64,000 nucleotides of DNA, taken from assembly GCA_028865345.1 (NCBI GenBank), contig JAGWKL010000001.1:63296-127295 (forward strand), in the 5' to 3' direction. The DNA is from Candidatus Omnitrophota bacterium (GTDB taxonomy: Bacteria; Omnitrophota; Gorgyraeia; Zapsychrales; Fredricksoniimonadaceae). Shown here in pieces: positions 38,960-63,820 of the stretch. The notes below the pieces were generated by a model. It was not told where the DNA came from. It made no database searches and was given only the letters and a program-made list of their open reading frames with translations. How positions within the stretch are numbered: position 1 is the stretch's first letter; every line of letters starts with the position of its first letter. The translations under genes and the position numbers were made by a program.

Positions 38960-40403
38960 TTCCCCCGTTTGAAACTTTATAATCCTGAAAGAACCCTTTG
39001 AGTTGAATTCTGGGAGGCAGCTGGATCCCGGAAGGCGGTTGAATTCCGTCAGGCATTTGGTTTTTGTAGACCAAAAATACCGCGTGCACCCGCGGTTTAA
39101 GGAGACCGTTTTGGGCCAGGAACTCCGCCGGGTTTGTCCCCTCCCGTATATTAATGACCCTGCGCGTATCCCCCCTATAATAGTAGCTGAAATCCTGAGG
39201 ATCGGCATAGGACACAATGAGATCGTTGGGACCTGCCGCCCGCATTAATTCTTTTGCGGTCGAGCGCCAGTCCTGCTGGGGAAAGCGGGCGATTCCGGTG
39301 AAATACAAATAAATATTAAAAATGGCGATCATAAGCATCGCCGCCAGCATCACGCTGCGCAAGGGGCCGGAGACGGCGCCCAACCGGCTGCTGATCATCA
39401 GGATAAGCGGCACCTGCAAAAATCCGACATACCGCGCCTCAAGATAAACGTGGACACAGGTATAATCGAACAGAAAATAGGCCAGAAGCGCCACGGCAGC
39501 CCATAAAAAGACGGCCCGGTCATCGGCTCTCCGGGGACTATCAACCAGGAAAAACACCAGCAAAAAGACATATAAAAAACAATTGATCTCCCAGAGCCCC
39601 AGGTGGAAAGAATATTGGGCCCAATTTTCATGCGTCCAAATTTCCAGGCCGCTGCCTATGATGAAGAAAAAAGAGCTTAAAGCAAAATGCAGGTAATCAA
39701 AGGCGGCCGTGGGGCGGATCAGCCCCCAGGTTTCTTTGGGGGAACACAAAAAAAGGACCACCCACGGAATACAAAAACCAAGTATGATGAGCTGCCCGGT
39801 GAACCATGGCCTGCGCCTGGCCCCGGTCAATATAAAAATGATGTTTTGCGCCGCCAGAAACAAAAACCCCGAATACATCGTATAGCAGCATAATATGGAT
39901 GTTGCGATATACCATCGATGCGGGGCCTTCCCCTGATTCCTGAGGAAACGGAAAAAGAACAAAAACGATAACGCCTCCAGCAGCCAGAAGGACGCGTACA
40001 TCTTGGCGTACTGGGCATAATGGACGGCAAACGGCGAGAAAGCCAGCAGCGCCGCGGCGATAAGCCCGGCATTTTTATTAAAAAGTTCCTTGCCCAGTTT
40101 ATAAATGACAATGATGGTCAGGCCGGAAAAAAGCGCCGAAGGAAACCTCAGCGCCCATTCGCTCGTGCCGAAAAGGCGCGTCCATAAATGGAGAAACGCA
40201 TAATAAAGCGGCGGAAACGAGGAAGCTTTCAGCAGGACTACGGTCTCCCAAAAAGAATGATTGATCCTCACCGCGGTGGTCAGCTCATCATCGCCCAGGC
40301 TGGGCGCCCCCAGATGATAAAACCGGAGCGCAAGCCCCGCGGTCAGCAGGGCCGCCATGACCCAAAAATCCCCCGGCATCTTCAAAAACCGCCGTTGCAG
40401 CAT
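38931..40403 (-). CDS. GT-C fold glycosyltransferase, family 39/83-like (PMT_2 / ArnT-like) membrane protein
   Basis: More than 10 TM helices. A first-loop DE motif (GDDELTT) and an FPPLYY block are typical of PMT/ArnT-type lipid-sugar-dependent transferases. Confidence 0.8.
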   Translation of the reverse strand: MLQRRFLKMPGDFWVMAALLTAGLALRFYHLGAPSLGDDELTTAVRINHSFWETVVLLKASSFPPLYYAFLHLWTRLFGTSEWALRFPSALFSGLTIIVIYKLGKELFNKNAGLIAAALLAFSPFAVHYAQYAKMYASFWLLEALSFLFFFRFLRNQGKAPHRWYIATSILCCYTMYSGFLFLAAQNIIFILTGARRRPWFTGQLIILGFCIPWVVLFLCSPKETWGLIRPTAAFDYLHFALSSFFFIIGSGLEIWTHENWAQYSFHLGLWEINCFLYVFLLVFFLVDSPRRADDRAVFLWAAVALLAYFLFDYTCVHVYLEARYVGFLQVPLILMISSRLGAVSGPLRSVMLAAMLMIAIFNIYLYFTGIARFPQQDWRSTAKELMRAAGPNDLIVSYADPQDFSYYYRGDTRRVINIREGTNPAEFLAQNGLLKPRVHAVFLVYKNQMPDGIQPPSGIQLPPRIQLKGFFQDYKVSNGGNGFYHFKRL

Positions 40404-40412
40404 GTCGCCTTT

Positions 40413-41135
40413 CTAATGAAACCTCAACTCCGATACAAAACGGCCCGGATCGATCTTCTTCATAAGCCCCTTCTCCTGTCTCATGGACAACAGAAGAAAG
40501 ACATCCCTGGCCAGCCGGTTGAGCCTTCCCATAAAATGGTAGTGCGTTTTCCCGAATTTTCTTTTCCGGCAGGCGATGTCGACCTCGCAAAGATTGATCT
40601 TTTTTTCCCTGGCCAGCAAAGGCAAAAACCGGAACGCCTCGCCCCTGTCTTTGATATCATTGACGATCTTGGACCGGTAGGCCCTGAAGGAGGAATTGAT
40701 ATCATAATACCCCAACCCGAACAACAGGCAGATCAGCCTCTTGGTGATCTTGCGCCTTTCTTTCTTGCCATTCACCACGTCGTAACCCATGTTGATTTTT
40801 TCCACCAGTTTCAAAATGTCCTGCGGGTCATGTTGGAGATCGCCGTCCATGGTGATGATCACCTCCGAACGGACAAAATTCATCCCGACCAAAAGCCCCA
40901 TGGTCTGGCCGAAATTCTTTTTAAGTTTGACCACATTGACGGACTTGTCCCGCTGGTGGATGGCGCATAACTCCCCATAAGAGTTGTCTTTGCTGCCGTC
41001 TTCCACGAAGATGATTTCATATCCCCCCCGCAGCGATTTCAGGCTGTCTTTCAGGCGCTCATAAAGGATGCCTATGTTCTGCTCTTCGTTGTTGACAGGA
41101 ATGACGATGGACAAATCCATGGCTTTTTGCGTCAC
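40413..41135 (-). CDS. GT2 polyprenyl-phosphate sugar synthase-like glycosyltransferase (DPM1/ArnC/GtrB-like)
   Basis: LSIVIPVNNEE...FVEDGSKD...MDGDLQHDP, the DXD-type GT-A motifs of Dpm1-like enzymes. Confidence 0.8.
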   Translation of the reverse strand: MTQKAMDLSIVIPVNNEEQNIGILYERLKDSLKSLRGGYEIIFVEDGSKDNSYGELCAIHQRDKSVNVVKLKKNFGQTMGLLVGMNFVRSEVIITMDGDLQHDPQDILKLVEKINMGYDVVNGKKERRKITKRLICLLFGLGYYDINSSFRAYRSKIVNDIKDRGEAFRFLPLLAREKKINLCEVDIACRKRKFGKTHYHFMGRLNRLARDVFLLLSMRQEKGLMKKIDPGRFVSELRFH

Positions 41136-42001
41136 AACTGCCCGTAGCTCGACAGCGAGATGCCGTATTGCTTGAACACTCCCCGGGCCCCCAAACAGCG
41201 CAATACCTCCATCTCCCGTTGTCTCGCGGCATTAATATAATATTTCTGCCGGTTAAGCACAGGGTCTTGCCATTCCTCATCGATATAGCCGGGATGGCAC
41301 ATCAATTCCGTGGTCCCCTTTTTTAAACCGGACAATACCCTTATGCAGCCTTCCAGCGTCATACGTCCTGTGACGGACGCCCCGTAAAAATAGTCCGGGG
41401 ACTTGACATGATAGGTCTCCAGCATCCGCCGGTTGATCATGGAGCAACAGGACAACAACAGCGCCGTGTAGGATTGCTTTTTAAATACCCTCCCCAGGCC
41501 GGCTCTTTGCCCCAGATAAGGAATTTCATTGATGCTGCGTATTTTTAAAATGCCGTATTCCCCGGCGATTGTCAAGAGGACTTTAAACAAAGGACTGAGG
41601 ATGTGGACATGCTTTTCACTGTCTAAATGCGTGATCCGGACCCCCCGGGAGAGGGCCTTTTCAATTTGGGCCCTGCATTCAACGGCAAATTCCTCCAAAC
41701 ACCTTTTGCCCGTATAACACAGCGCGGCCAGACGGTTGACATTCCCGTGGAAAAATCCCCCCTCGCAAAGGCTGCCGACGCCTTCGACGGGAGAAACAGG
41801 CCTGCCCCGCAGCACATTGATGTGAAGACCGACCCCCAAACCCGGATTGTCCCTGATTGATCTGACGGCGTCCTCAAAACCGGGCATATTCACCATCAAT
41901 GACGCGCTGGTCAATACGCCGCTGTTAAACAACTCTATTATTCCCTTATTAATGCCGCGGCTGAGGCCGAAATCGTCGGCATTGATAATGAGCTTCTTCA
42001 T
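41132..42001 (-). CDS. YdjC/ChbG-family carbohydrate deacetylase
   Basis: N-terminus MKKLIINADDFG, a YdjC hallmark. Internal start chosen. Confidence 0.8.
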   Translation of the reverse strand: MKKLIINADDFGLSRGINKGIIELFNSGVLTSASLMVNMPGFEDAVRSIRDNPGLGVGLHINVLRGRPVSPVEGVGSLCEGGFFHGNVNRLAALCYTGKRCLEEFAVECRAQIEKALSRGVRITHLDSEKHVHILSPLFKVLLTIAGEYGILKIRSINEIPYLGQRAGLGRVFKKQSYTALLLSCCSMINRRMLETYHVKSPDYFYGASVTGRMTLEGCIRVLSGLKKGTTELMCHPGYIDEEWQDPVLNRQKYYINAARQREMEVLRCLGARGVFKQYGISLSSYGQL

Positions 42002-42723
42002 AAACGGCTTTTTACTTTTCGGCGGCCATAGGTTGTTATCAACATACGCCGCATGACGGCAGGGACCTGGATCTCGCTTTTGAAGGTCCGGTGCGGGATG
42101 CCCCGTGCAATGGCCAATGCACGCAAAAGTTTCTTGTCTTTCTTCAAGGCCGCGGGCACCTCCTGCGCCAATGCCAGCATGGCTTCTGATAAGAACGGGA
42201 AAATAAATTTGCACCCGTGAACCTCGGCCACGCGCAAATGAAGGGCCTTTTGCCGCCTGGCGTCCTGTAGGCGCTCCTTAAGCCTTTGCGGCCTTACTTG
42301 CAAAGCCTCATTACCAAACCACTGATCAGAACCCATGCCTGAAATCAACACGTTCCCCGCAGTCTTGGGATCGTATTTCTTGAGGGCCGCATACACGACC
42401 CCCAGGTCCAGGTCCGCCATAGGCTGCTCCGTCAAAGCGGCAAGCCCCCCAAAAGCGGACAAGAATTCCGCAGGTTTCACATGAAGGATGCAATGTTTGA
42501 TCCCTGCCTGCCGGGCGGACTCAGCGGCCCCGGCAACGGTGAGAGGGTTAAAATCGTCAAATTGCACCGTCACCGCCGTCACTTGGGCGCCGCAGCGCCG
42601 GGCCATCAACGCCATCAGCATGGAATCGAACCCGCCGCTGAACATGATCGCCCGGCGGGTGCCGGCCATCTTTCCCATGGCCGACTCCAGTGTCCGCTCC
42701 ACCAAAAAAGGAAGATCCCTCAT
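41998..42723 (-). CDS. PP-loop superfamily ATP pyrophosphatase (asparagine synthetase C-domain / QueC / LarE-like)
   Basis: A SGGFDS PP-loop close to the N-terminus. No C-terminal Cys cluster, so probably not QueC proper. Confidence 0.6.
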   Translation of the reverse strand: MRDLPFLVERTLESAMGKMAGTRRAIMFSGGFDSMLMALMARRCGAQVTAVTVQFDDFNPLTVAGAAESARQAGIKHCILHVKPAEFLSAFGGLAALTEQPMADLDLGVVYAALKKYDPKTAGNVLISGMGSDQWFGNEALQVRPQRLKERLQDARRQKALHLRVAEVHGCKFIFPFLSEAMLALAQEVPAALKKDKKLLRALAIARGIPHRTFKSEIQVPAVMRRMLITTYGRRKVKSRL

Positions 42724-43697
42724 GCCTTCACGGCCCTGTTGTATATTTCCATTTTCTCGCCGACCATCTTATTGCGGGCCGTCCAGCGGCAATTAATGCA
42801 CTCATGATAGTTTCTAAAGGGGGCTTCCCCCTTTAGGGCCGAATTACGCGTACGCGTATACAGTTCCGATTGCCAGATGTCTTTGAATGATGACTTAAAC
42901 ACATTGCCCATCGATGAGCGGTGCGTAAAAATACAAATATTCACATCGCCATTAAGGCGTATCGCGCTGAAAAACCATCCGGTATAACACGCAGGCCATT
43001 CTCCTTCCAACTCGGTTTTCTCCACCTGGTCGGGCAATATCATATGACGGTTATGGTCGCTGGGCTGAAATCCTTTGATCTGGACCTTGTCCGCTCCGAG
43101 CTTGCGGACCAGGGCCTGCGTCCTTGGCAAACTGGCTTCATTTAAACGGTTTAAAACGAAAACCACTTCAATGCAAAAATTCGGGTTGAATTGCGGCCTG
43201 AGCCTGGCCAGTTCCCTTATATTTCTTATGACCTTCATAAAAAGGTCTTTGCCCACCAAGGCGCGGTAACTTTCCCGGTCCGCTTCCCCCAGATTGATCA
43301 CAATGCGGTCTGCCCGCAAAATATCGCGGCAGCGTTCGATGGGGAACGTTGCGTTCGAATACACAGTGACCGAAAAGGACCGTTCAAGATGGCATAAAAG
43401 GTCATAAAAGCGGGGATGGAATATCGGGTCCCCCACGCCGGAAAGGTGGATCTTGTCAACCTGGAGATCGGCGCAGTCCTGCACCAATCTCTCGATCAAA
43501 TCATACGGGAGATGGTTCTTGCCCGAAGGGCGGATGGCGCTGCCCGGGCCGTAATACCAGCAATACTGGCATTCGAGATTGCACAGGTCCGTCAACTGTA
43601 ACTGGACGGTGGCGGGGCCGATCAGGGCGCAGCCGGATTCAATGCTTTTAAGGCGCAGGAACAATCTTCTCTGTCGCTCACGCAGGTCCAGGATCAT
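42720..43697 (-). CDS. Radical SAM protein
   Basis: CNLECQYCWYY (CX3CX2C followed by aromatics). ATGA overlaps on both sides. Confidence 0.8.
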   Translation of the reverse strand: MILDLRERQRRLFLRLKSIESGCALIGPATVQLQLTDLCNLECQYCWYYGPGSAIRPSGKNHLPYDLIERLVQDCADLQVDKIHLSGVGDPIFHPRFYDLLCHLERSFSVTVYSNATFPIERCRDILRADRIVINLGEADRESYRALVGKDLFMKVIRNIRELARLRPQFNPNFCIEVVFVLNRLNEASLPRTQALVRKLGADKVQIKGFQPSDHNRHMILPDQVEKTELEGEWPACYTGWFFSAIRLNGDVNICIFTHRSSMGNVFKSSFKDIWQSELYTRTRNSALKGEAPFRNYHECINCRWTARNKMVGEKMEIYNRAVKA

Positions 43698-44839
43698 ACG
43701 CCCCCGGCCGCCGCACGGCGGACTTTCTCATCCAGCATTTTATTGATCGGCACATAACTGCAGTACCTGCATTCCTTCCATTTGGATGAGCAGGTATGTA
43801 TGCCCCGGGCCGCTTCCTTAAGCGTATCGTGCAGAAAATCATTATCGAACCAGATGTCTTTGAACCGCCGTTCGTTGACATTGCCCGCCACACAGACCCC
43901 GACGTTGTCACAGGGCGCCACCACCCGCCCTTTCTCGTCGATATTGGCATAGAACCATCCCACATGGCAATGGATGCTGCCGCCGGTCGTATCATAAAAC
44001 AACAGGCGGTCATTGTGCATCGGCGAACGCGACAGGGAATCGACGTTTCTCAATACCTGCCCGCTTTGAAGAATGTGGTGCAGGTGTTTAAGGTCGTGCC
44101 TGAAGCCGTACGGGGTCCGCAGAGCTTCGTCGACGGTATGGAATAAAGACGCCAGTCCCTCCTGGGAAAAAACCAGGTCCTTCATCTCCTGGGTCGCCTT
44201 AAAAAAACGGACGACGACCTTGTCTATCCGGCGCTGATGGGCCATGTTCAAAAAGGCGCCCAATTCCTGATAATTGTGGTCATAGACGACGAATGACAGC
44301 ACGATCTGGGGTTTGCCGCGTTTGGAGCGCATGGCCAAAAGCAAGTCCAGGTTATGCAGCACGCGTTCCATGGAGGTGTGCTTGCCATGGACGCGTTTGA
44401 ACGATTCTTCGGTCATGGCGGAAAAATTCACGGTCAGCTGGTCGGCAAAACACAGGCCCGGCAGATGGTCCGCCGCAAAGCCCAGATGGCTGTAGGCGAT
44501 AAGCCGCATGCCCAGCTCTTTGACCTTGCAGAAAGCCCTCTCCCAATACGGATAAAGCGTGACTTCTCCGCCCTCAAAATTGATCTCGTCGACGCCGATC
44601 TCCCGGCAGTCTTCCAGCACCCCTTCGAGCACCTCATAATCCAGCAATTTCCTTTGCGGCTGGTCTTTGACCAGAGGAGAAAAATACCAGCAGAACTCGC
44701 ATTTGTAGTTGCAGGAATTGATGATGTGGATGTTGACGGACTTGGGGCCGATCAACGGCTTGCCGAGGATGGAACTCCTGATGCGCAAGGCGTCCCTGAC
44801 CCCGGTATCTGTGATGCTTGACATGCGGCTCTCAGCCAT
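43694..44839 (-). CDS. Radical SAM protein with C-terminal Cys-rich (SPASM-like) region
   Basis: CNYKCEFCWYF, plus a C-terminal ...CHVGW...PCDNVGVC...CSSKWKECRYC. It is a tandem paralog of 42720-43697. Confidence 0.8.
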   Translation of the reverse strand: MAESRMSSITDTGVRDALRIRSSILGKPLIGPKSVNIHIINSCNYKCEFCWYFSPLVKDQPQRKLLDYEVLEGVLEDCREIGVDEINFEGGEVTLYPYWERAFCKVKELGMRLIAYSHLGFAADHLPGLCFADQLTVNFSAMTEESFKRVHGKHTSMERVLHNLDLLLAMRSKRGKPQIVLSFVVYDHNYQELGAFLNMAHQRRIDKVVVRFFKATQEMKDLVFSQEGLASLFHTVDEALRTPYGFRHDLKHLHHILQSGQVLRNVDSLSRSPMHNDRLLFYDTTGGSIHCHVGWFYANIDEKGRVVAPCDNVGVCVAGNVNERRFKDIWFDNDFLHDTLKEAARGIHTCSSKWKECRYCSYVPINKMLDEKVRRAAAGGV

Positions 44840-45593
44840 GCCCCTGCCTCTTTTTGGATCCTGATAAAATTTCAGAAAACAACATGACCCTCCAGCCTTT
44901 CTTTGCTTTTAATGCCGCGACATAATCCAAAAAACGTATCAATTCCCTGCGCCGCAGCGCTCCCCTGAAGTCCTCATGGTGCGTCAATACGCCGGACAAT
45001 GCCTGGCGGTCGACCTGCCTGGTCAGGCCGGCCAACACCTGCGCGGCCCGGCAAATGCTCTTGCGGCCCTGATCGTAGCGGGTGAAGGAAATCAAGGCCG
45101 GTATTTCGATCCATGCCCTTCTCCTCCCCGGCCGCCTGCTCCCGGCCGAAAAGATCTTGAAGCCCTCCCCGGAAAGCGCTTGCAACGTACGTTCATCATA
45201 CCCGTGATACGGCGGCACGAAAGCCGGCGTAAAAAGATCGCCGAAGGCCCGCCGCATGCTTTCCAGGCCCCGCCTGATGTCTTCCCGCTGATTTTTTAAA
45301 GAACGCCCGGGCCCGAATTCAAATTTCGTGCCGGCATCGACGCTGTGATTGTCATGCGCCCATCCGTGCTGGACAATGTCCAGCATGAAGGGTGTTTTCT
45401 CCTTGGCGCGGCGCAAAAATCCCACCAGCCCCCGGTCCATCCTGCCCGGGATGACCGCATGCACGACCGGAATGCCCCTATCCATGGCTGAATCAAAAAA
45501 GTAACGGAATTCGTCATCCAGCCTCCACACATCATCATTACGAATAAAAAGCCGTGCACTCATTATATAATCAAGTATACTATTTTCTACCAA
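44832..45593 (-). CDS. CE4-family polysaccharide deacetylase-like protein (NodB fold)
   Basis: IRNDDV (DD motif) and HGWAH (HxxxH). Confidence 0.55.
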   Translation of the reverse strand: MVENSILDYIMSARLFIRNDDVWRLDDEFRYFFDSAMDRGIPVVHAVIPGRMDRGLVGFLRRAKEKTPFMLDIVQHGWAHDNHSVDAGTKFEFGPGRSLKNQREDIRRGLESMRRAFGDLFTPAFVPPYHGYDERTLQALSGEGFKIFSAGSRRPGRRRAWIEIPALISFTRYDQGRKSICRAAQVLAGLTRQVDRQALSGVLTHHEDFRGALRRRELIRFLDYVAALKAKKGWRVMLFSEILSGSKKRQGHG

Positions 45594-45596
45594 ACA

Positions 45597-46787
45597 ATGC
45601 GCGTCTTATTCCACTACACCCACAAGCAAACCCTCGGGCACACCACCCGCAGCATCTCTTTTGTAACAGCGCTTTGCCGCCTTAAAGCCGATGTCCTCGT
45701 ATTGCAAGGGGGCCTTGTGCAGCCTTTTGTCCGTTTCCCCTCCGGCTGCCGGGTCATGGATATCCCTTTTCCTTTTGACGCACGCACCAGTTTTCAGGCC
45801 CACGCTGTCCCTGTATCCGCAAGCCGACGCGCTCAATTTATCCTCAAAGCGGCCGCTGAATTCTGCCCTGATGTTTTCATCACCGAATTTTTCCCTTTCG
45901 GCAGATCGTCCTATTTGCCGGAACTGCTGCCTCTGTTGCGCTACCTGCGTAAAAAAGGTACCCGTATCATGGCCAGCATCGGATATCCTTTGATCATCGA
46001 CCTGGATCGTTTCAGCGACCCGAAATTCGCCGCCCTGCAAAAAGCCGTATTTGCTTTCTACGACAACTTTCTCATCCATACGCCGCAAGAGCTTGAAACC
46101 CCGTATATCCAAAAAACCATCCCCTCCGAGCCCCTGGCCCGTTCCTATGCCGCACTGATGAAGGACCTGAAGGCCCGGATCGACTATACCGGCTATATCT
46201 TCCCGGAAAAAATCATCACCGGCGATTCCTTGCGGCCGAATTCCACCGCCCCTTCCATCGTCGTCAGCCGCGGGGGCGGCGCCGTGTATCCGAAACTCAT
46301 GACCACCGCCATCGAAGCCCAGCGTCTCCTCGGGGGCGTCCATACGGTGATCGCCTGCGGTCCGGCCACGACCGCGGCGGAAAAAGCCTTGTTCACCTCC
46401 TGCCTCGATCCCCAGGACAACGGCCGGGTGGTCCTTTCGGACCTTCTGGCGGACCTTGACGACCATCTGCGCACGGCAAGGGTTTCGGTGAGCCTGTGCG
46501 GCTACAATACCTGCGTCCAATTGATGCGTTACGGGACGCCCTCGGTGATCGTCCCCTATCACAACACACTTGCCTCCAACCCGACCAATGACCAGATGGC
46601 CCGCTCCCGGTTGCTTGCCGAACGCTTCTCTGGTATCATCCTTGATTACGATACGATGACGCCGCAAAGTTTGTCCGACGCTATCAAAGAACAAATGTCC
46701 AAACCCCGCCCTGCGCCCGCCCCCCGGGACTGGTTCAACGGGGCTGAAACGGCAGCGCGTCTTGTGCTTGAAGGTAGGGCAAATTAA
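45597..46787 (+). CDS. GT-B fold glycosyltransferase (GT1/GT28-like), paralog A
   Basis: Two-Rossmann pattern and the shared block FITEFFP. It is a paralog of 61504-62721. The antisense 362-aa track ORF inside it was rejected. Confidence 0.6.
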   Translation: MRVLFHYTHKQTLGHTTRSISFVTALCRLKADVLVLQGGLVQPFVRFPSGCRVMDIPFPFDARTSFQAHAVPVSASRRAQFILKAAAEFCPDVFITEFFPFGRSSYLPELLPLLRYLRKKGTRIMASIGYPLIIDLDRFSDPKFAALQKAVFAFYDNFLIHTPQELETPYIQKTIPSEPLARSYAALMKDLKARIDYTGYIFPEKIITGDSLRPNSTAPSIVVSRGGGAVYPKLMTTAIEAQRLLGGVHTVIACGPATTAAEKALFTSCLDPQDNGRVVLSDLLADLDDHLRTARVSVSLCGYNTCVQLMRYGTPSVIVPYHNTLASNPTNDQMARSRLLAERFSGIILDYDTMTPQSLSDAIKEQMSKPRPAPAPRDWFNGAETAARLVLEGRAN

Positions 46788-47751
46788 ATTTCTTCAAAAA
46801 CCCATGATAGGCAAAGCACCCGGGGCAATGGCCCTGGGCCGCATCTTCCGCATGCCGTTGACGGACCAGATCCAGTTCCTGCGGCAATTGTCCCTGATCT
46901 CCCAGTTTCCCGGCAGGCTCCATGTAGAGGCAAGGAAAAACATTCCGGCGCGAATTAATGAAAAGGGATTTGGCCGGGGTTTCGCAGGCGCGGATGCATT
47001 TGCGGCCGCCGGCCAAAAGCACCATCATGGCCTTGACCAGGCGGTTGTCAACCCCCGCGTAATTGTCCTTTAACATGGCCTCCACCTGTCCGCGGACATC
47101 TTCAACCATGGCAGGCGTCAGGGAGGCCAGTTGGCCTGCCTGCGGCATCTCGTGGCGGTGATAGTAATCATCGACGCCGGATTCCATGATCTTGGGTGAA
47201 AACCGCGCTTTAAAGCGCCGCGCCATACGGTAAACATCGCCTAACTCGGCGTAATTCAGGCGGTTGATGGTGAATTTAAATTCCAGGATGATGTCCTTGC
47301 CGAAATGGGCGGCCAGCCACTCGATGGTTTTTAAGGATTTCCCAAAAGCCCCCGGCCCCCGCAGGCGGTCATGCACCTCTTGTCTTCCGTCGATGCTGAT
47401 CCCCATGTGCATCCCGCTCAAATCCTTGCCGTAGGCGGTCATCACGCGGCGTACGCCTTCGAAATACGCCGCGTTGCTGTAAACGCCGAAGCCCGAAATC
47501 TGGCCGCGTTGGCGGAAGAACGACATCGCTTTCAATACGCGCCCGCAATTCCTGTTGAGAAAGGGTTCTCCTCCGGTGATGGACACAAAATAAACCTCAT
47601 AACGCGCAAGCAATTGGCGCATCATGCGCACGACCAATGACGAGGACATCTCATGGCGGTCTTTTTCCGCCCATATCCCGCAGTGCTGGCAATGGAGCTG
47701 GCAGTGATTGGTGATTTCGATGGTTATATCGTTAAGCAGAGGTTTTTTCAT
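46735..47751 (-). CDS. Radical SAM protein with SPASM-like C-terminus
   Basis: CQLHCQHC, plus a C-terminal ...FPCLY...GHCPGCFAYHG. Confidence 0.8.
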   Translation of the reverse strand: MKKPLLNDITIEITNHCQLHCQHCGIWAEKDRHEMSSSLVVRMMRQLLARYEVYFVSITGGEPFLNRNCGRVLKAMSFFRQRGQISGFGVYSNAAYFEGVRRVMTAYGKDLSGMHMGISIDGRQEVHDRLRGPGAFGKSLKTIEWLAAHFGKDIILEFKFTINRLNYAELGDVYRMARRFKARFSPKIMESGVDDYYHRHEMPQAGQLASLTPAMVEDVRGQVEAMLKDNYAGVDNRLVKAMMVLLAGGRKCIRACETPAKSLFINSRRNVFPCLYMEPAGKLGDQGQLPQELDLVRQRHAEDAAQGHCPGCFAYHGFLKKFNLPYLQAQDALPFQPR

Positions 47752-48850
47752 GTTCTACAAAAGACCTGCTGGTTTCAATGACCTGCCGGGCCTTGTCCTC
47801 GCTCATGAATGAATACAAAGGAAGATGCAGGGCCGAGGCCGCATACCACGCGCTGACCGGAAAGCCCTCCTGCTGATTTCCCTTAAATACCGCCATGCGA
47901 TGCAGCGGTATGTACGCCCGCTGGGCCATGATGCCCCGGCTTTCCAGGAAATTAAAAAACTCGTCCCTGCAATCGCAGCACACCACGAAATTCTGCGCCA
48001 CGCTTTGGGTTTGCGGGGCGTCTTTGAAGATCGTCAGTCCCTCGATTGTGCCGATCTGCCGCTCATATAAGGCCTTGATCTTATGGCGGGAGGCAATGAT
48101 CTCTTTCAGGCGGGAAAATTTGACCCTCAGGGCCACCAGGTCCATCAGGGACATAGGCGCAAACCGCTGCCCCAGCTTGACAAGCTCACCGGTGTCACGC
48201 CAGTCTTCCATCCAGCGCCGGATGCGGTTGAGTTTGGAGGCGTCAGCCGTGATCATGCCCCCTCCGCCGCCGCAGGACGAGAGGGGTTTGTAGTAAGAAA
48301 AGGAGAATACGGCCATATCACCGAAGGAACCCAGCATGCGGCCTTTGTACCTGGAGCTTTCCGCCTGGCACACGTCTTCGATAAAAACGATGTTCTTCTC
48401 CCGGCAAAATTTTCCGATCCGCTCTACGTCGCACGGCCGGCCGAACATATGGGCGGCAATGACCGCCCTGGTCTTCTTGGTCACGGCCGCTTCCACGAGA
48501 CCCGGGTCCAACTGAAGGTCTTCGGCGCGCGCATCCACGGCCACCGGTGTGGCCCCGCAATAACAAACGGCCAGCGCCACGGCCTGGTAGGTCAAATCAG
48601 GGACAATCACCTCGTCGCCGGGCCCCACCCCGCAGGCCAGCAGGGCCATTTTCAAGGCATCGCTCCCGGAGTTGACGGCCAGCGCATGCTTGACCCCGAT
48701 ATACCGCGCAAATTCATTTTCAAAATCTTGCACCATGGGCTTGATATCATTCAGCCCGCTCATGGCTTTAAGGGCACGGTCCATTTCAGCCGCATACTCG
48801 CGGCTCAAGGCCTGCTCCACCAAAAGACTTTCATATCTTACGGCTGCCAT
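47732..48850 (-). CDS. DegT/DnrJ/EryC1/StrS-family PLP-dependent sugar aminotransferase
   Basis: NSGSDAL block and an SFSYYKPL lysine (PLP) block typical of the DegT family. Confidence 0.85.
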   Translation of the reverse strand: MAAVRYESLLVEQALSREYAAEMDRALKAMSGLNDIKPMVQDFENEFARYIGVKHALAVNSGSDALKMALLACGVGPGDEVIVPDLTYQAVALAVCYCGATPVAVDARAEDLQLDPGLVEAAVTKKTRAVIAAHMFGRPCDVERIGKFCREKNIVFIEDVCQAESSRYKGRMLGSFGDMAVFSFSYYKPLSSCGGGGGMITADASKLNRIRRWMEDWRDTGELVKLGQRFAPMSLMDLVALRVKFSRLKEIIASRHKIKALYERQIGTIEGLTIFKDAPQTQSVAQNFVVCCDCRDEFFNFLESRGIMAQRAYIPLHRMAVFKGNQQEGFPVSAWYAASALHLPLYSFMSEDKARQVIETSRSFVEHEKTSA

Positions 48851-49857
48851 GCAGTTGCCCCCATGATCTTATGATCAATGGCCTCGATTTGTTCGCACAG
48901 ATCGATATAAGCCCGCACCCTCTCTTCATAGCGGCGGCCCGGCGGGGTCTTGACCGCCTGCAGGGCATTGAAATTGCTGATGCTGCGGTAACTGCAGTTG
49001 GGATGGCCGGCCAGATGCTCTTGCAGCGCCTTAAAATAAGGCCCGGCCTGCGCCAGGGGCTCTCCCGACGGCCCTTGGCTGAAATCCATCAGATAAAGGC
49101 ACTCGCGCACCTCCTCGGGAAAGGACAAAAGCAGCCAATTGGCCAGCACCTTGCCGCTGGGCACGGACAGCAGGTCCCAGGCCCCGCGGGAAGGCTCGCT
49201 GTATCCGCGGCCGATCAAACCATGCCTGCCCTCTTTCAACTCCCAGGCGCAGGCCCGGCGGTATTGGTCTAAAAAAACGCCGGCCGCTGCTTTGTCCCAG
49301 ACTTCCAGAAAAGCCGGGTGCACTTCAATGGATTTCAGGCCCATGGCCGCCAAATATTTTAAGTTATCAAACAATTTGGCCGCGCCTGAAGGGTGCACCA
49401 CCATGGTGGTGGTATACGGCCCCTGGGAACGCAGGACCAGATTGACGCCCCGCACGATGTCCGCGTAATAATAAGGGCCTATCCCCGGCCGGTTGCGCTG
49501 GGTGGTGGTTTCATCTCCGTCGATACCGACCTCCAGATTGACCCCGTGGGTCAGGAAAAATTCCATCAGCTCCTCATTGAGCAGGGTGGCATTGGTCTGG
49601 ACGGACATATACCGGTTCAGGCCCTGGCCGGAGATCTCCGCAATCATTTCTTTAAGCCGTGCGGCATCCATCAAAGGCTCTCCCCCGGAGAAAACAAATT
49701 CCATCGGGGCCATCGGACGGACGAACTTAAGGATATTCTCGAATGTTTTTAAAGCGATGACCTGGCTTTGGGTCCGGTATTTATAGAAGCAATACCCGCA
49801 CCCCAGATTGCAGCGGTCGGTGAAGAAGAGCCAAACATGGTTGATCTTTTTGATCAT
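48838..49857 (-). CDS. Radical SAM protein
   Basis: CNLGCGYCFYKY. Internal start MIKKINHVWLFFTDRC gives an ATGA overlap with the upstream gene. Confidence 0.8.
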   Translation of the reverse strand: MIKKINHVWLFFTDRCNLGCGYCFYKYRTQSQVIALKTFENILKFVRPMAPMEFVFSGGEPLMDAARLKEMIAEISGQGLNRYMSVQTNATLLNEELMEFFLTHGVNLEVGIDGDETTTQRNRPGIGPYYYADIVRGVNLVLRSQGPYTTTMVVHPSGAAKLFDNLKYLAAMGLKSIEVHPAFLEVWDKAAAGVFLDQYRRACAWELKEGRHGLIGRGYSEPSRGAWDLLSVPSGKVLANWLLLSFPEEVRECLYLMDFSQGPSGEPLAQAGPYFKALQEHLAGHPNCSYRSISNFNALQAVKTPPGRRYEERVRAYIDLCEQIEAIDHKIMGATAWQP

Positions 49858-50897
49858 GTTCCGTATTTTTTGACCCCCAGGGTCAGGTGGGTCCTTGTCA
49901 AGAACCGCAGGATATCGTTGATGGCCCATGTGTTCATATATTGAGTGCCCATCATGGAGTTCATCAGTTCAAAATTATGGCAGACAAATTCGCGGTAAGG
50001 CAGTTTGGCGTGCTCCCGGTGCACTTTCTCGTGTGCCGTCCGGTAAAAGGCCAGCACCTCAGGCCTGAAACGGCCGACGTCATCCCAGATATTGAATTCC
50101 ATCCGTTTGTTTTCCGGAAGGCAAAGAAAAGGGTCTCCCCCCAAAAGATATCCCGGCGGATGCAGGCTTAAGTCCATGTACCCGGGAGCGATCCATTCAT
50201 TGTCCTCATTGGCATACATGGTCCTGCGCAGTTCGGGCCTGCGCGCCAATTTCAGATAATTTGTTTTAAAAAGCGCCACGGTTTCCGGCGTCCAGGGCAT
50301 GAACGCCGCCGGAGTGACATCCACATGGGGGATGCCCATTTCCCTGAGAAAATCCAGGCCCTGTTCCATGTGATCGACTTCTTGAGGGTGCACCGTCATC
50401 GTCGAACCGCAGCCGATGCCGGCCTGAACACAGGCACGGATGGTTTCCGTCAATTTCTTGAAGGACGCCGGTTTTAAGCCGCAGCGGTGGCGCAGGGTGG
50501 CCTCGGAAGCCCCGTCGATGCCGAACTCCAGGGTGACGCCCAGCCGGCGCAGTTCAATGATCGAATCGCGGTCTATCAACAGTCCGTTGGTCTGGATATG
50601 CAGGGAGGTGTCCTTGAAGCGCCCGTGGGCCTCATTCAAGATCCTAAAAAGGTTCTCCTTGGCCAAAAACGCCTCCCCGCCGGAAAAAATCAATGTGGAC
50701 GGGGCGCCTGTTTCCTTTTCGAACAACAGAAAAAGTTTTTCCACGGCGTCCAATGATATTTCCCGGCCGTGCATGTGCCGAAAGAAGCAATAATCGCAAT
50801 GCAGGTTGCAGCGTTCGGTCACATAGATCCAGGTGTAATGGACCTTGAATTTACTGTGCTTTTGTTCTGGCGTCGATAAAGTACCTGATTTTTCCAT
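49854..50897 (-). CDS. Radical SAM protein
   Basis: CNLHCDYCFFRH. It is a tandem paralog of 48838-49857. Confidence 0.8.
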   Translation of the reverse strand: MEKSGTLSTPEQKHSKFKVHYTWIYVTERCNLHCDYCFFRHMHGREISLDAVEKLFLLFEKETGAPSTLIFSGGEAFLAKENLFRILNEAHGRFKDTSLHIQTNGLLIDRDSIIELRRLGVTLEFGIDGASEATLRHRCGLKPASFKKLTETIRACVQAGIGCGSTMTVHPQEVDHMEQGLDFLREMGIPHVDVTPAAFMPWTPETVALFKTNYLKLARRPELRRTMYANEDNEWIAPGYMDLSLHPPGYLLGGDPFLCLPENKRMEFNIWDDVGRFRPEVLAFYRTAHEKVHREHAKLPYREFVCHNFELMNSMMGTQYMNTWAINDILRFLTRTHLTLGVKKYGT

Positions 50898-52011
50898 TCA
50901 AGGTCCTCGGGAGGGTCCCTTCATGTTTTCTGAGTTCAACGCAATTGTCCAATCCCAGCGCTTTGACGACAACCTGGCACACGGACGGCTTGATGCGGTC
51001 GGCCGCCACGTTAATAATAAGTTTATCATAATATTGAAGCCGGTGCTTATCAATGAGAAAGAAGAAACACGGGGTTCCCAAACAATTGTTGACGGTACGG
51101 ATGAGGGCTTCTTTGTCCACCACCACACCGTTGACAAGCAAGCTCTCCTGCGTCCTTCCCAACACCTTGATCGCCAACGCGCCGCGCCGGTCCAAAAGCT
51201 CGACACGGTCGCCCAAACGGTAGCGGACAAAGGGCATGCTGGTGTTGTTGAGGTCCGTCACCAACAAATCGCCGGTTCCCGTTGGTGACGCCTCACCGGG
51301 CTGCGCCAGTACCTCCAGCAAAAGCCCTTGGGCAAAGACCCTCATAGAGTCATCGCCGGCCTTGAGGGCGAGGGCCAACCCTGAAATTTCCATGGCCCCG
51401 TAGTGGTCGTGGATGCTTACTCCCCCCATCTTTTCCATCCGCCGCCGGTAGTCCGGCCATAAAGGCTCGCCGTTGACCAGGCAGCGCCGGATAGAATGCC
51501 GGCGGCCCAATACCGAAAACAGGTCAAACAACTGGTTGGTATACGCGTTGACAACCGCGGGTTTCAAAAGCCTGACGAGACGGGCCGCTTCGTGAACTTT
51601 CTCCGGGCTGCTGATAGGGCCAAGCGGAATGACGCCCGCGCCAGCCGCCTTAAAAGCCGTCTCCATCATGCGCCCGCCGCTGTTTAGTTCATAAGAACAT
51701 AAATTCAGGCACAGCACCCCCGGCTTGATGCCGGCATGGCGGTACATCATGACCAAACGGCCCAAATGGGCCTCATACGCCTGCCGGGAATGGGCTATGA
51801 TCATCCTCGAGGAAGTGGACCCTGAGGTGGCCGTGATATTAAAGGCATGCCGCAAACCCCCGGAGGCGTACGCCTTGATATCTTCCCTGCTTGTGACGGG
51901 AAGCTGTTGAAAATCCCGCCACGAACGCAAAACACGGCGGCGTCCCGGGGAGGGAAAACTTTTGAGCAACTGCGAAACTTGTTTTAACGCCTGCGCATTA
52001 AACATCATCAA
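50851..52011 (-). CDS. Adenylate-forming enzyme, phenylacetate-CoA ligase / coenzyme F390 synthetase (CapK)-like
   Basis: ATSGSTSSRMII matches the ANL superfamily motif A1 (T/S-S/G-G-S/T-T-G). The ~386-aa size fits the PaaK family. Confidence 0.6.
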   Translation of the reverse strand: MMMFNAQALKQVSQLLKSFPSPGRRRVLRSWRDFQQLPVTSREDIKAYASGGLRHAFNITATSGSTSSRMIIAHSRQAYEAHLGRLVMMYRHAGIKPGVLCLNLCSYELNSGGRMMETAFKAAGAGVIPLGPISSPEKVHEAARLVRLLKPAVVNAYTNQLFDLFSVLGRRHSIRRCLVNGEPLWPDYRRRMEKMGGVSIHDHYGAMEISGLALALKAGDDSMRVFAQGLLLEVLAQPGEASPTGTGDLLVTDLNNTSMPFVRYRLGDRVELLDRRGALAIKVLGRTQESLLVNGVVVDKEALIRTVNNCLGTPCFFFLIDKHRLQYYDKLIINVAADRIKPSVCQVVVKALGLDNCVELRKHEGTLPRTLNGKIRYFIDARTKAQ

Positions 52012-52052
52012 GCCCCTGCCCTCCCGGCCCGGCGCAACCGGTTTTCATATGA

Positions 52053-53129
52053 TCATGACAAGCCTTGAGAATTCCTGTCCTTGCCATGCGCCGTCAGCGG
52101 AGCCTCCGTGGCTTTGCACAATAAACAAGGGCGCCAATAGTTCTTGGAAATATCCATGACAGGGCTGAAATCTTCTTTCCCGGAAATGATCTCATCAAAG
52201 CTTTGTGATAATAAATTACCGAAAAAAAACGGGTCCTGATCAATGGGCAGGCCGTTGACGGCGCGGAAGGGATTATAACAGCCGTAACAATCCCCGTTGC
52301 CGTCGATAAACAACACGTATTTATGCACCCCGCAGGTGTAACAACAACCGGCATCTGTGCCGCGGCCCTCTGAAAAAGGCCTCAACCTCTCCAGAAGCTT
52401 CTCGGTCTTCTTTATAAAATCCTGCAGGTTCGTACAATCCCATAAGTCTTTACGGCGGCTGTTGAGTTTTGCCAGCAGTAAGACCTTGTGCAGCCCTTCA
52501 TAATCGAATCCAAGGTGCTTGGGGGTCTTGATATAATTGTGCACATGCTGATAAGAAACATATAATTTCCTGCCCCCTAATTCGGCAGCGAGCAAACGAT
52601 TGACCTCCTGGGGGAATGTAAATGCGTCTTTCAATGATTGTGCCGTAACGACATAATTGGTCCGCAGGGTTATGCCCAGGCCGTTTTCCAGAATGCCGCG
52701 AAGGACGTTTTTGACCGATCCGATGCAGCGGTCAAAAGAAAATCCCGGCGAGGGTTGGTGGATCCTGGCCAGGCCCTCCTGGTCCACGGCGTTCAAATTG
52801 ATTGTCAACGTCCGTATAAAGGGCAGGACCTCGAGAATGGCCTTGTCATTAAGGGCATTGGACAACAGCTCGATCTTATAACCAAGCTCATGGGCCATGG
52901 CCACCACCTTGGTGAATGCCGGGTTCAAAGTCGGTTCACCCCTGCCGCCTATTTCCAGCACCCGGAATCCATGCGCGTAAGCCGACAAGAGGACATCGTT
53001 CCAGCGCTGCAAGCTCATGGAATCTTTATCGCTTAAGGGATGCTCTTCTTTGACATAGCCATACATGCAAAATGTGCAGTGATATTGGCAGCCATCGTAA
53101 AGCGAGACGAGCAATCTTTTATCTTCCAT
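52053..53129 (-). CDS. Radical SAM protein with SPASM-like C-terminus
   Basis: CQYHCTFCMYGY, plus a C-terminal AGCCYTCGVHKY...GDCYGCYNPF. Confidence 0.8.
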   Translation of the reverse strand: MEDKRLLVSLYDGCQYHCTFCMYGYVKEEHPLSDKDSMSLQRWNDVLLSAYAHGFRVLEIGGRGEPTLNPAFTKVVAMAHELGYKIELLSNALNDKAILEVLPFIRTLTINLNAVDQEGLARIHQPSPGFSFDRCIGSVKNVLRGILENGLGITLRTNYVVTAQSLKDAFTFPQEVNRLLAAELGGRKLYVSYQHVHNYIKTPKHLGFDYEGLHKVLLLAKLNSRRKDLWDCTNLQDFIKKTEKLLERLRPFSEGRGTDAGCCYTCGVHKYVLFIDGNGDCYGCYNPFRAVNGLPIDQDPFFFGNLLSQSFDEIISGKEDFSPVMDISKNYWRPCLLCKATEAPLTAHGKDRNSQGLS

Positions 53130-54440: not shown

Positions 54441-55322
54441 TCACGCCCCTGCCTTCCTGGCCTTGCGCAAGATCAGATCCAATGCCGGAGTTTTAAGGCC
54501 CTGACGCCTGGCCTGGCGCACAAGCGCCCCTGTTATGTAATCAAGTTCCGTCGGCCGGCCTGCCCGCCTATCCTCGAACAAGGTCCCGCGGTGAGCGATC
54601 CCCTTCAAATCACCCTGGCGCACCCTCTTTATTATTTTCAAAGGATCAAAAGCCAGGCGGACCCTTAAAGCACGGGCTACGGCCTTGCCTTCTTCGACAG
54701 CCTGACGCACCGATTTCCAGACGCAAGCATCTGTCCTTAAAACATCATATCCCCTGCCTTCGATCACAGGCAACGGGTTCATCACCGCGCTGAAGATCAA
54801 CTTGGCCCAGGTGATCCTTGAAGATCGGGACACCAAAGAAGCCTTTAAACCGGCATCGGACAAGAGGCGGCAAAACCAGCCGGCCGCTTGTTTGTGCCGG
54901 TCGCATGCCAAAAAGAACCTTCCCTGATAATGAAAAACCGGCTTGCCTTTCACATTACCGACGGCGGAAGTGGTCACTCCCCGCACCAAAGCCGCTTCGG
55001 GCAGTCCATGGGCGATCCGGGGAAGGTCCAGAAGCCCATTTTGCAAGAAGAGCACCCGCCGGGCAGCCCCTATGATTTTCAACCCGGCCAGCGCCCGCGC
55101 GGCGTCATAGCATTTCGTTGCCACGATAACCCCGTCGAACGATCTTCCCCTGAGGCCGGCAGGGTCATGAAAAACCGGCACCTTGACCCTGGCCCGGGGA
55201 CAAGGGTCGAGGACCGTCACCGACGCGCAAGGCCCGAGGCGAAGGGCAAGGGCCCCTCCCAATGCCCCGCATCCGACGATCAACAACTGCCGTCTTTGCC
55301 CTGTGCGTCTAAACGATTGCAA
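54441..55322 (-). CDS. 2-dehydropantoate 2-reductase (PanE/ApbA)-family NAD(P)-dependent oxidoreductase
   Basis: N-terminal LLIVGCGALGGALALRLG dinucleotide-binding motif and a PanE-like length of 293 aa. Confidence 0.65.
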   Translation of the reverse strand: MQSFRRTGQRRQLLIVGCGALGGALALRLGPCASVTVLDPCPRARVKVPVFHDPAGLRGRSFDGVIVATKCYDAARALAGLKIIGAARRVLFLQNGLLDLPRIAHGLPEAALVRGVTTSAVGNVKGKPVFHYQGRFFLACDRHKQAAGWFCRLLSDAGLKASLVSRSSRITWAKLIFSAVMNPLPVIEGRGYDVLRTDACVWKSVRQAVEEGKAVARALRVRLAFDPLKIIKRVRQGDLKGIAHRGTLFEDRRAGRPTELDYITGALVRQARRQGLKTPALDLILRKARKAGA

Positions 55323-59333: not shown

Positions 59334-59387
59334 ACATTTGCCTCCTGTAACTGTGGACGGTTTAAGGCCTGAAGCTGCCCGGAACAT

Positions 59388-63576: not shown

Positions 63577-63820
63577 TGGAATGGTTGATGCAATTGCCCG
63601 ATGTACTCAGCGCATTCGTGTGGGTGGCCGTATTCTGCGCGGATGTGATATCCGTCATCGCCCCTGCCACGCCCAATGCCGCCACCGTAGACAAGCCGAC
63701 CTTTAAAATGGTTTCCTTGCTGACAAAGCCGTCCTCATCTTTCATCAATTCACCGAGAGACTTGGTCAGCGCCGCGGTCTTGTGAACGGCTTTACTTTTA
63801 TTTTTGGTTTTCTTGTTCAT
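63551..63820 (-). CDS. Small hypothetical protein (89 aa), Lys-rich N-terminus, Thr/His/Asn/Ser-rich C-terminus
   Basis: ORF only. It overlaps neighbours at both ends. Possible precursor-like peptide; see findings. Confidence 0.3.
   Translation of the reverse strand: MNKKTKNKSKAVHKTAALTKSLGELMKDEDGFVSKETILKVGLSTVAALGVAGAMTDITSAQNTATHTNALSTSGNCINHSNVTTHTSY

Follow-up and report, generated by a model that had tools for sequence, protein, structure and literature searches.

The window analyzed here is a 64,000-nucleotide (nt) stretch of a Candidatus Omnitrophota genome (assembly GCA_028865345.1, contig JAGWKL010000001.1, positions 63,296 to 127,295 of the forward strand). It contains ten complete radical S-adenosylmethionine (radical SAM) enzyme genes, R1 to R10, and the 3′ end of an eleventh; in our judgement, ten such genes per ~24 kb is far above the usual genomic density. 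The genes flagged in a preliminary description of this DNA are the middle of a locus of ~29 kb, hereafter the cassette, which runs from ~36.9 kb to the end of the window and ~1.9 kb beyond it. At this end of the cassette lies the gene for a small exported protein that resembles HxsA3, and the locus as a whole may be an enlarged HXS-type peptide-plus-sugar maturation locus with this protein as its final substrate, a reading that we consider to have about an even chance of being right. Throughout, L-numbers denote related loci or, for L143, the stretch of this contig that runs beyond the end of the window; a scan of metagenome contigs seeded with an alignment of orthologues of GT28a, a glycosyltransferase of the cassette, yielded 80 loci, which were annotated by BLAST with the window proteins.

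The HxsA3-like protein of 89 amino acids (aa), the probable substrate (63551..63820, minus strand), was matched at E 3.8e-15 when the open reading frames (ORFs) of the window were searched with a hidden Markov model (HMM) of eight related HxsA3/4-like peptides from distant loci. It has a lysine-rich N terminus and the near-invariant leader SLGELMKDEDG/FVSKETILKVGLSTVAALG, in which the slash marks the predicted cleavage site, and across the family a leader core of 30 residues is nearly invariant (SLGELMKDEDGFVSKETILKVGLSTVAALG). An invariant G/FVSKE is followed by a moderately hydrophobic segment of 20 residues, and the C-terminal core of the family, C-x2-H-T-N-[VI]-T-T-H-[TS]-S-Y, in which C, H, N, H, S, and Y are invariant, reads C-x2-H-T-N-V-T-T-H-T-S-Y in the window protein. 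Judged by sequence, the combination of a near-invariant leader and an invariant core is a precursor-like architecture. There are 190 homologues, all from Omnitrophota where the source is named, with 62-84% identity for the 120 matches listed, and the family is rare, with 78 matches among 1.84 billion cluster representatives. A further candidate, the 4220-aa repeat adhesin P0211, gave 33 "matches" to the small-protein profile and was rejected as a compositional false positive (repeat TSDDGFYTINNAGVITITALGAASAV). The conserved N-[VI]-T in the core of the 89-aa protein (residues 80-89) is an N-x-T sequon; given this sequon and the presence of a GT-C glycosyltransferase with weak similarity to STT3 (38931-40403), N-glycosylation of the peptide is conceivable.

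Read from beyond the end of the window back into it, the contig carries two copies of T2SSE, then T2SSF, a coiled-coil protein gene, an HxsD-like gene, an HxsB-like gene, the HxsA3-like gene, a gene for a 262-aa protein, and the glycosyltransferase gene GT28b; these are followed by R10 and an A24 peptidase gene on the opposite strand, and then by a long string of genes in which the flagged interval lies. The eleventh radical SAM gene (63798-64000, minus strand) is the 3′ end of the HxsB-like gene, of which only the last ~200 nt are inside the window. The full gene (L143:8611-10023) encodes a radical SAM/SPASM maturase of 470 aa that matches TIGR03978 over its full length, with 360.8 bits against a cutoff of 370. 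For the HxsD-like gene (L143:8177-8599), the TIGR03976 score is 28.7 bits, with a cutoff of 50, and its product has a precomputed match to the Pfam HxsD model PF27806 that is labeled "weak" and had no match in a separate Pfam scan. The gene directly after the HxsB-like gene is that of the small protein, not HxsC. Directly downstream of the small protein is a secreted Cys-containing protein (62788..63576, minus strand), 262 aa as the longest ORF and called as 246 aa, which has no detectable homology to the secreted protein encoded after the peptide gene of distant loci.

All ten complete radical SAM proteins contain a CxxxCxxC motif and match PF04055 in Pfam (E 5.5e-7 to 3.3e-23), and all but R10 are encoded on the minus strand. 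R1 (37850-38884; motif CQLACPVC) has a SPASM domain by Pfam. R2 (42720-43697; CNLECQYCWYY) is a twitch-type enzyme, and its distant paralogue R3 (43694-44839; CNYKCEFCWYF) is a radical SAM/SPASM protein. R4 (46735-47751; CQLHCQHCGIW), part of the minimal conserved core described below, has a twitch/SPASM-like C terminus; R5 (48838-49857; CNLGCGYCFYKY) and its paralogue R6 (49854-50897; CNLHCDYCFFRH) have no SPASM domain; and R7 (52053-53129; CQYHCTFCMYGY) is again of the radical SAM/SPASM type. R8 (53119-54312) has the architecture of the B12-binding class, with HpnJ and PhpK as best matches, far under their cutoffs. The sole strong Protein Data Bank (PDB) match of R9 (55335-56720) is AprD4, the apramycin diol dehydratase. 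The top match of R10 (60525-61556, plus strand), PqqE, is far under cutoff, and R10 belongs to the conserved core that accompanies HxsA3/4-like genes.

The preliminary description had seen in seven of these motifs, all assigned to the interval 42720-53129, an expanded paralogous family of SPASM-type enzymes. Each of the seven belongs to a real ORF that matches Radical_SAM in Pfam, and the tandem pairs 42720/43694 (R2/R3) and 48838/49854 (R5/R6) are real; six of the genes lie in that interval, and R1, with CQLACPVC at 37850-38884, lies outside it. The motif CxxxCx(aromatic)C is the signature of the whole radical SAM superfamily and gives no evidence of recent common origin. In an all-versus-all BLASTP comparison, similarity exceeding the superfamily level is confined to the pair R2/R3 (24% identity, E 2e-27) and the pair R5/R6 (29%, E 9e-31). 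R1 to R6 have counterparts with ~40-84% identity in other Omnitrophota loci, and each of R2 to R7 has its own counterpart, at 25-36% identity, in L009, a locus of a metagenome-assembled genome (MAG) labeled "Planctomycetia." The only lineage-specific change in copy number that we saw is the presence of extra R1/R2-type genes in some loci (L006, L060). Because the enzymes have their own counterparts across Omnitrophota and in the distant L009, the set is best described as an old fixed series of different enzymes with no recent paralogue expansion, and the notion of a lineage-specific expansion is not confirmed.

The auxiliary domains, C-terminal Cys-rich regions for one (twitch) or two (SPASM) Fe-S clusters, are likewise less uniform than had been proposed. 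Among R1 to R7, SPASM (PF13186) is matched in Pfam by R1, R2, R3, and R7 only. In alignments with counterparts from other loci, R2 retains only four conserved auxiliary Cys (C237, C255, C300, and C303), which fits a twitch domain, and R4, which has no Pfam match, has a conserved twitch-like set (C256/C274/C309/C312); R5 and R6 have neither an auxiliary-cluster domain in Pfam nor a conserved auxiliary Cys cluster in these alignments. SPASM-like or twitch-like tails are thus found in five of the seven listed enzymes. Nor do these seven have room for the N-terminal recognition element (RRE) of enzymes acting on peptides that are synthesized by the ribosome and modified posttranslationally (RiPPs): the CxxxCxxC motif of R1 to R7 and R10 starts at residues 14-43, leaving no N-terminal space for one, and no scanned protein of the cluster matched the PqqD-like PF05402 at E < 0.01 in Pfam, which can miss RREs. 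The HxsD-like protein encoded beyond the window may fill this role. None of R1 to R10 exceeds the curated cutoff of an NCBIfam model. The best score against sactipeptide/ranthipeptide-type maturase families comes from R5, which reaches 83 bits with the PapB model (cutoff 340); PapB is the top NCBIfam match of both R5 and R6, SkfB is the top PDB sequence match of R4, and single-sequence PDB searches with R2, R4, and R6 returned matches at the superfamily level only. Between 37.8 and 59.4 kb there are no free gaps between genes that could hold a short Cys-containing precursor beside the maturases, and the Cys-rich ORFs of this interval all overlap real genes. The suggested kinship with sactipeptide or ranthipeptide systems is not borne out by RREs, by a short Cys precursor, or by scores against curated cutoffs.

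The radical SAM genes are interleaved with genes for carbohydrate-type enzymes, and most neighbors overlap by 4-47 nt. The gene for an APH-family kinase-like protein (36856..37920, plus strand; PF01636, E 1.6e-9) overlaps by 4 nt a gene for a Cys-rich protein described below; it accompanies the cassette, has counterparts in L006 (three copies), L060, L007, L009, L113, L097, and L101, and is absent from L062, which lacks the cassette. Between R1 and R2 on the minus strand are genes for the GT-C membrane glycosyltransferase (38931..40403; PMT_2, with weak ArnT, Agl23, and STT3 similarity), a GT2 glycosyltransferase of the ArnC-like polyprenyl-phosphate sugar synthase type (40413..41135; NF007986, E 9e-35, under cutoff), a YdjC-family, HpnK-like carbohydrate deacetylase (41132..42001; TIGR03473, 171 bits versus a cutoff of 233), and a PP-loop ATPase (41998..42723; Asn synthase/QueC-like), a putative amidotransferase or ligase whose gene adjoins R2 in every Omnitrophota locus examined. 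At higher coordinates on the minus strand are a DUF2334/polysaccharide-deacetylase-like protein (44832..45593), which belongs to the conserved core in every tier of loci; a DegT/DnrJ/EryC1-family PLP aminotransferase (47732..48850; LegC, PseC, WecE, ArnB-like), whose gene overlaps R4 and R5; a PaaK/DVU_1553-like adenylate-forming ligase (50851..52011), 47% identical to its L009 counterpart; a PanE/ApbA-family NAD(P)H ketoreductase (54441..55322) directly after R9; a weakly methyltransferase-like protein (56717..57595); and an FAD-dependent enzyme (57621..59387) with weak similarity to the halogenase CmlS, QhpG, and LodB. GT28a, a GT-B glycosyltransferase with a GT28 C-terminal domain (45597..46787, plus strand), is antisense within this string. 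An A24-family prepilin-type aspartyl peptidase with a GGDAKLF motif (59584..60483, plus strand) and a second GT28-like GT-B glycosyltransferase, GT28b (61504..62721, minus strand), two genes downstream of the small protein, complete the set. PDB sequence searches with GT28a and the APH-like protein gave no matches. The 3′ ends of convergent genes overlap in three pairs, namely APH/R1 (71 nt, 37850-37920), GT28a/R4 (53 nt, 46735-46787), and R10/GT28b (53 nt, 61504-61556), an arrangement that is kept in all five of the other Omnitrophota loci inspected (L001, L006, L059, L060, and L061).

Comparison with related loci ties the small protein to the radical SAM and glycosyltransferase genes. GT28a identities fall into tiers of at least 59% within Omnitrophota and 23-35% in distant loci, those distant loci that bear the cassette lying at 28-35%. 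The shared core of these cassette-bearing distant loci consists of A24, R10, and DUF2334 genes on one strand and DegT, GT28, R5, and GT28 genes on the other; R3, R4, R6, and R7 are also shared, as are the APH kinase, the PaaK-like ligase, and two R2-type genes, and the minimal conserved set is HxsA4, GT28, R4, DUF2334, R10, and DegT. A scan of metagenome contigs with an R2 alignment was swamped by the generic CNLxCxYC motif, and its useful loci were only L008 and L009. Clustering of the unassigned ORFs of distant cassette loci yielded a family of ~90-100-aa proteins with a Lys-rich N terminus, the sequence KDE(S/D)G/F(V)(S/T)KE, a hydrophobic stretch, and C-terminal His-x-Ser repeats ending in Ser-Tyr. 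By NCBIfam, these distant peptides are HxsA4 (85 bits, cutoff 55, for one peptide type) or near-threshold HxsA3, and L113 encodes a true HxsB (385.8 bits versus a cutoff of 370). Co-occurrence was counted in the 31 distant loci of at least 9 kb. Of the 16 with cassette genes, 11 have an HxsA-like ORF in view; the other 15, with a GT28a relative but no cassette genes, have none. A GT28-like gene lies within ~0.3-1.1 kb after the HxsA-like frame in seven loci, the first such gene following at ~0.27-0.44 kb in L111, L114, L125, L127, and L130 and at ~1.1 kb in L094 and L096. The A24 gene adjoins R10 in six distant loci (L009, L113, L097, L111, L105, and L107), five of which have an HxsA3-type peptide in view, and it was not seen in HxsA4-type loci. 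Within Omnitrophota, the MAG locus L146 (L146:10001-19171) contains two HxsA3-like copies; a homologue of the 262-aa protein comes after each of them, and one of these copies lies between pilus assembly genes and an A24 peptidase gene. At least eight contigs apparently encode both R2-family and HxsA3-like proteins, as inferred from matching contig sizes. A DDE transposase gene lies between the A24 peptidase gene and the HxsD/HxsB-like genes of L146.

In classical HXS systems, HxsB, HxsC, and HxsD are all needed for the maturation of HxsA, which is N-terminally processed, exported, and modified by +8 Da in a SHRSS motif; these systems, 99.7% of which occur in Pseudomonadota, act in antiphage defense by blocking the entry of phage DNA, as shown experimentally in Escherichia coli (PMC13128918). 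Variant models for HxsA2, HxsA3, HxsA4, and HxsC4 are contained in NCBIfam. The Omnitrophota locus resembles the classical systems in that HxsD-like and HxsB-like radical SAM/SPASM genes stand immediately upstream of the gene for a small exported protein whose C terminus carries His-x-Ser/Thr motifs, the substrate would be expected to undergo N-terminal processing and export, and related loci of other lineages hold HxsB and HxsA4 above curated cutoffs. It differs in its host, in its 89-aa substrate with a degenerate core, in the lack of an HxsC orthologue, and in the addition of ~10 further radical SAM enzymes, two GT28-like enzymes, DegT, deacetylases, ligases, a kinase, a GT2/GT-C pair, and an A24 prepilin-type peptidase. 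Because the HxsB-like and HxsD-like genes lie directly upstream of a conserved precursor-like gene, a series of enzymes working on a single ribosomal product is plausible. To this extent the RiPP-type reading of the preliminary description survives, in that a peptide-maturase module is present; the substrate and the enzyme family that it named were wrong, the nearest named system being HXS.

From gene content, homologies, conserved synteny, and co-occurrence we infer the substrates, chemistry, order of steps, and biological role as follows. The 89-aa HxsA3-like protein would be the ribosomal substrate, and the HxsD-like/HxsB-like pair, together with some of the other radical SAM enzymes (R4, R5, R6, and R10 are candidates), would modify its His/Thr/Ser/Asn core in the cytoplasm. 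A GT28-type glycosyltransferase would then add a HexNAc-type sugar, of which the DUF2334 or YdjC deacetylase may expose the amine. Oxygen-free tailoring of this sugar by twitch-type and AprD4-like radical SAM enzymes (R1 to R3, R9, and R8), the DegT aminotransferase, and the PanE-like reductase could comprise oxidation and transamination, deoxygenation, and methylation, with acyl or amide groups supplied by the PaaK-like and AsnB-like ATP-dependent enzymes. During export, the dedicated A24 peptidase would cut off the long Lys-rich leader at the invariant G/FVSKE, and on the periplasmic side a lipid-linked sugar may come from the ArnC-like GT2 enzyme and the GT-C transferase. The product would be an envelope- or pilus-associated glycopeptide.

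Several observations weigh against this model. The 89-aa protein scores 23.7 bits against the HxsA3 model NF038309 (cutoff 65), contains only degenerate H-x-S/T/N motifs (H-T-N, H-S-N, and H-T-S), and gave a poor AlphaFold2 (AF2) model, with a predicted local distance difference test (pLDDT) score of 55, that was not used. The HxsC model TIGR03977 is matched best by R6, at 51.9 bits versus a cutoff of 267.9, and no protein reaches that cutoff. Five of the 16 distant cassette loci have no HxsA-like ORF in view, most of them being cut on the relevant side by the edge of the contig or of the retrieved sequence, and in other Omnitrophota the linkage of the cassette to the small gene (~17 kb from GT28a) is drawn from L143, L146, and the matching contig sizes. 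What points to glycosylation of the peptide is the adjacency of the genes, and the sugar enzymes could serve a separate glycan pathway; what points to a pilin-like nature of the 89-aa protein is its sequence motifs and the association with the A24 gene. More tentative still, and in our view possible but probably not correct in full, is a more specific version of the model in which HxsA3/4-type systems make a new class of ribosomal product: a small, prepilin-like HxsA3/4 peptide, acted on by up to eleven radical SAM enzymes and carrying an aminosugar tailored by oxygen-independent radical chemistry on the peptide, would be cleaved by the A24 peptidase and displayed on the envelope or in a type IV pilus of ultra-small Omnitrophota as a mini-pilin and/or defense effector.

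The main rival to the enlarged HXS-type locus is a free-standing sugar or glycan pathway beside an HXS-type module. Here the radical SAM enzymes would tailor an aminosugar or pseudo-oligosaccharide in a self-contained anaerobic pathway, the HxsD/HxsB/HxsA3 module would be a neighbor with a separate function, and the product would be a surface glycan, delivered by way of polyprenyl phosphate and the GT-C enzyme (onto the adjacent pilin or lipid A, for instance), or else a secreted aminoglycoside-like metabolite. The gene content speaks for this rival, since the DegT aminotransferase gene lies between R4 and R5, an APH-family kinase is encoded in the locus, and the two GT28-like enzymes, the DUF2334 and YdjC deacetylases, and the ArnC-like GT2 enzyme beside the GT-C enzyme follow an Arn-type logic; L059 has extra UDP-sugar dehydrogenase and epimerase genes, and bacterial glycosylation genes often lie beside pilin genes. 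The preliminary description had held that placement of the enzymes in sugar pathways would speak against a peptide-modifying role, and in part this is the case, as sugar enzymes interleave and couple translationally with the radical SAM genes.

The enzymes themselves bear some likeness to sugar-tailoring radical SAM enzymes such as BlsE, BtrN, AprD4, and DesII. R2 has the size and fold of the small-molecule twitch enzymes: its AF2 model (pLDDT 92.8) has BlsE as best fold match, with full-length coverage and a TM score of 0.63 in both directions, followed by SkfB, SuiB, MoaA, DesII, viperin, anSME, and BtrN, and its family profile matches MoaA and the BtrN twitch domain. The fold search shows a compact twitch architecture, beyond which it does not separate peptide-acting from sugar-acting enzymes. 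R9 matches the PDB sequence of AprD4 at E 2.5e-12, and R9 followed by a ketoreductase gene recalls the AprD4/AprD3 pairing; the radical SAM genes flanking DegT recall the oxidation-then-transamination logic of BtrN. The substrates of BtrN, AprD4, and BlsE are sugars or cyclitols, BtrN oxidizing 2-deoxy-scyllo-inosamine (PMC13598754). Against these likenesses, identities are 12-20% and the family HMM scores are far under cutoffs (R9 scores 48.6 bits against the AprD4 model NF033070, with a cutoff of 500, and R7 and R10 score 16.7 and 22.9 bits against the BlsE model, with a cutoff of 400), so that similarity to the aminoglycoside-type enzymes BtrN, AprD4, and BlsE is confined to the fold level and to remote sequence matches. 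With respect to the Arn-type and HpnI/HpnK/HpnJ modules, the ArnC-like GT2, HpnK-like YdjC, and GT-C genes stand side by side and HpnJ is the top match of the B12-class R8, but all scores are under cutoffs, the module varies between loci, and there are no hopanoid or lipid A genes. Membership in hopanoid HpnIJK, ladderane-type lipid, or aminoglycoside pathways was dropped, the scores being far under cutoffs and the pathway-defining genes missing.

We consider the free-standing sugar pathway rather unlikely. HxsA3/4-like genes accompany the GT28/R4/R10/DegT core in very distant loci and were not found beside core-less GT28a relatives, and the GT28-like gene close behind the HxsA-like frame recurs in seven loci. 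Among the window proteins we identified no cyclitol synthase, no nucleotidyltransferase, and no flippase or exporter, nor were nucleoside-pathway genes found here, and the GT2, YdjC, and GT-C module is among the parts of the cassette that vary. We know of no sugar pathway with so many radical SAM enzymes.

The enlarged HXS-type locus has also to be set against the possibility that no single product is made. The cassette sits inside a type IV pilus locus: in the window, pilMNOPQ is followed by a gene for a Cys-rich protein and then by the cassette, and in L062 the same pilin is found with pilMNOPQ, T2SSE, T2SSF, and the coiled-coil protein and without the cassette or the APH gene, a Y1 transposase gene lying at the junction that joins the pilin to the rest of the pilus locus. 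Because L062 has the pilus locus without the cassette, the ~29 kb are an insertion/deletion polymorphism inside it. Such a site could be a hotspot at which an HXS-type defense module, a polysaccharide cluster, and orphan radical SAM genes have been brought together as a variable-region patchwork, as the transposase at the corresponding site of L062, the DDE transposase and duplicated modules of L146, and the varying content of the loci (extra R1/R2 copies, arylsulfotransferases, and GT-C genes) might suggest. We regard this as improbable, since core gene order and overlapping frames are kept across Omnitrophota, other lineages have this combination as well, at 25-47% identity, and GC content is uniform with that of the flanking core genes. 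The first 31,500 nt of the window are core housekeeping sequence (L2, EF-Tu, EF-G, rpoC, rpoB, tRNA-Trp, tRNA-Thr, and TyrRS, with S1, phosphoglucomutase, Obg, and RNase G as further genes); given this flank and the similar GC content, the locus is chromosomal and does not look compositionally foreign.

The Cys-rich protein of the pilus locus (35753..36859, plus strand) had been proposed as the precursor on which the radical SAM enzymes act. The gene exists; it encodes a pilin-like protein of 368 aa (384 aa as the longest ORF, with 32 Cys) with a predicted prepilin-type N terminus, MRKNG/QSIIEY, cleaved after G and followed by 20 hydrophobic residues. Type IV pilin-like proteins (class III signal peptides) are marked by a basic leader with Gly at its end, Glu at +5, a hydrophobic helix after it, and a cognate A24 peptidase. 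Neither the Cys-rich protein nor the 89-aa protein has a Pfam pilin match. The family of the Cys-rich protein, with 12 matches found only in Omnitrophota, is highly conserved over the first 60 aa and fast-evolving in the remainder, with ~16 Cys invariant or nearly so. The protein belongs to the type IV pilus locus that hosts the cassette. Because it is predicted to be exported as a prepilin, it is an unlikely crosslinked radical SAM substrate: a domain crosslinked in the cytoplasm could not pass through Sec export. By eye, the family alignment has no convincing pattern of conserved N-x-S/T sequons. A relative, P0088 (L062:4006-5625), has a C-terminal Hint (intein-like) domain.

In common with AlbA, SkfB, CteB, PapB, and anSME, radical SAM enzymes of the cassette combine the radical SAM core with SPASM/twitch auxiliary clusters, the best weak matches of R4, R5, and R6 include PapB and SkfB, the FAD enzyme is weakly similar to the protein-modifying QhpG and LodB, and the Cys-rich gene is found beside the cassette in the window, L006, L060, L061, L069, L083, and one JGI locus. 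That the radical SAM/SPASM enzymes are ranthipeptide- or sactipeptide-type maturases, each placing thioethers in the adjacent Cys-rich protein, is nevertheless very improbable, given the size and prepilin-type signal of that protein, the conservation of its Cys as in a disulfide-rich exported domain, its occurrence with a cassette-free pilus locus in L062, the cassettes with no such protein in view in L009, L113, L097, and others (no pilin-like or Cys-rich ORF was found in L009, L007, or L059), the missing space for an N-terminal RRE and the missing PqqD match, the lack of SPASM in R5 and R6 and of a short Cys-rich precursor in gaps, and scores of 70-83 bits against peptide-maturase models with cutoffs of at least 340.

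The classical HXS system has been published and models for HxsA3 and HxsA4 exist in NCBIfam; the enlarged architecture reported here appears to be undescribed, and our literature searches returned no description of HxsA3/HxsA4 systems, of the enlarged architecture, or of this Omnitrophota cluster. If the model is right, the HXS defense system would extend far beyond Pseudomonadota, with glycosyltransferases and a prepilin peptidase added to it, and the locus would be, to our knowledge, the most radical SAM-rich maturation locus for a single substrate; it would also join RiPP-type peptide chemistry with anaerobic radical sugar tailoring, which are usually studied apart. Peptide-borne radical tailoring of a sugar, if true, would be considerably more novel than an HXS variant. 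The 89-aa protein with its invariant core would then also be a concrete substrate for ~10 enzymes that lack an assigned function. Omnitrophota are an uncultured phylum with suspected host-dependent lifestyles, and decorations of the Omnitrophota pilus or envelope probably matter for attachment and phage resistance.

Two observations concern accessory genes of related loci. A gene at L009:14262-15302, with counterparts in L101 and L113, encodes a protein that matches Peptidase_U32 weakly and has the motif CDMKCEGCDYC at its C terminus; O2-independent hydroxylases are among the members of the U32 family. In the JGI Omnitrophota locus of P0051, three arylsulfotransferase-family genes adjoin the R2/AsnB genes and APH kinases, which hints at sulfation in some lineages.

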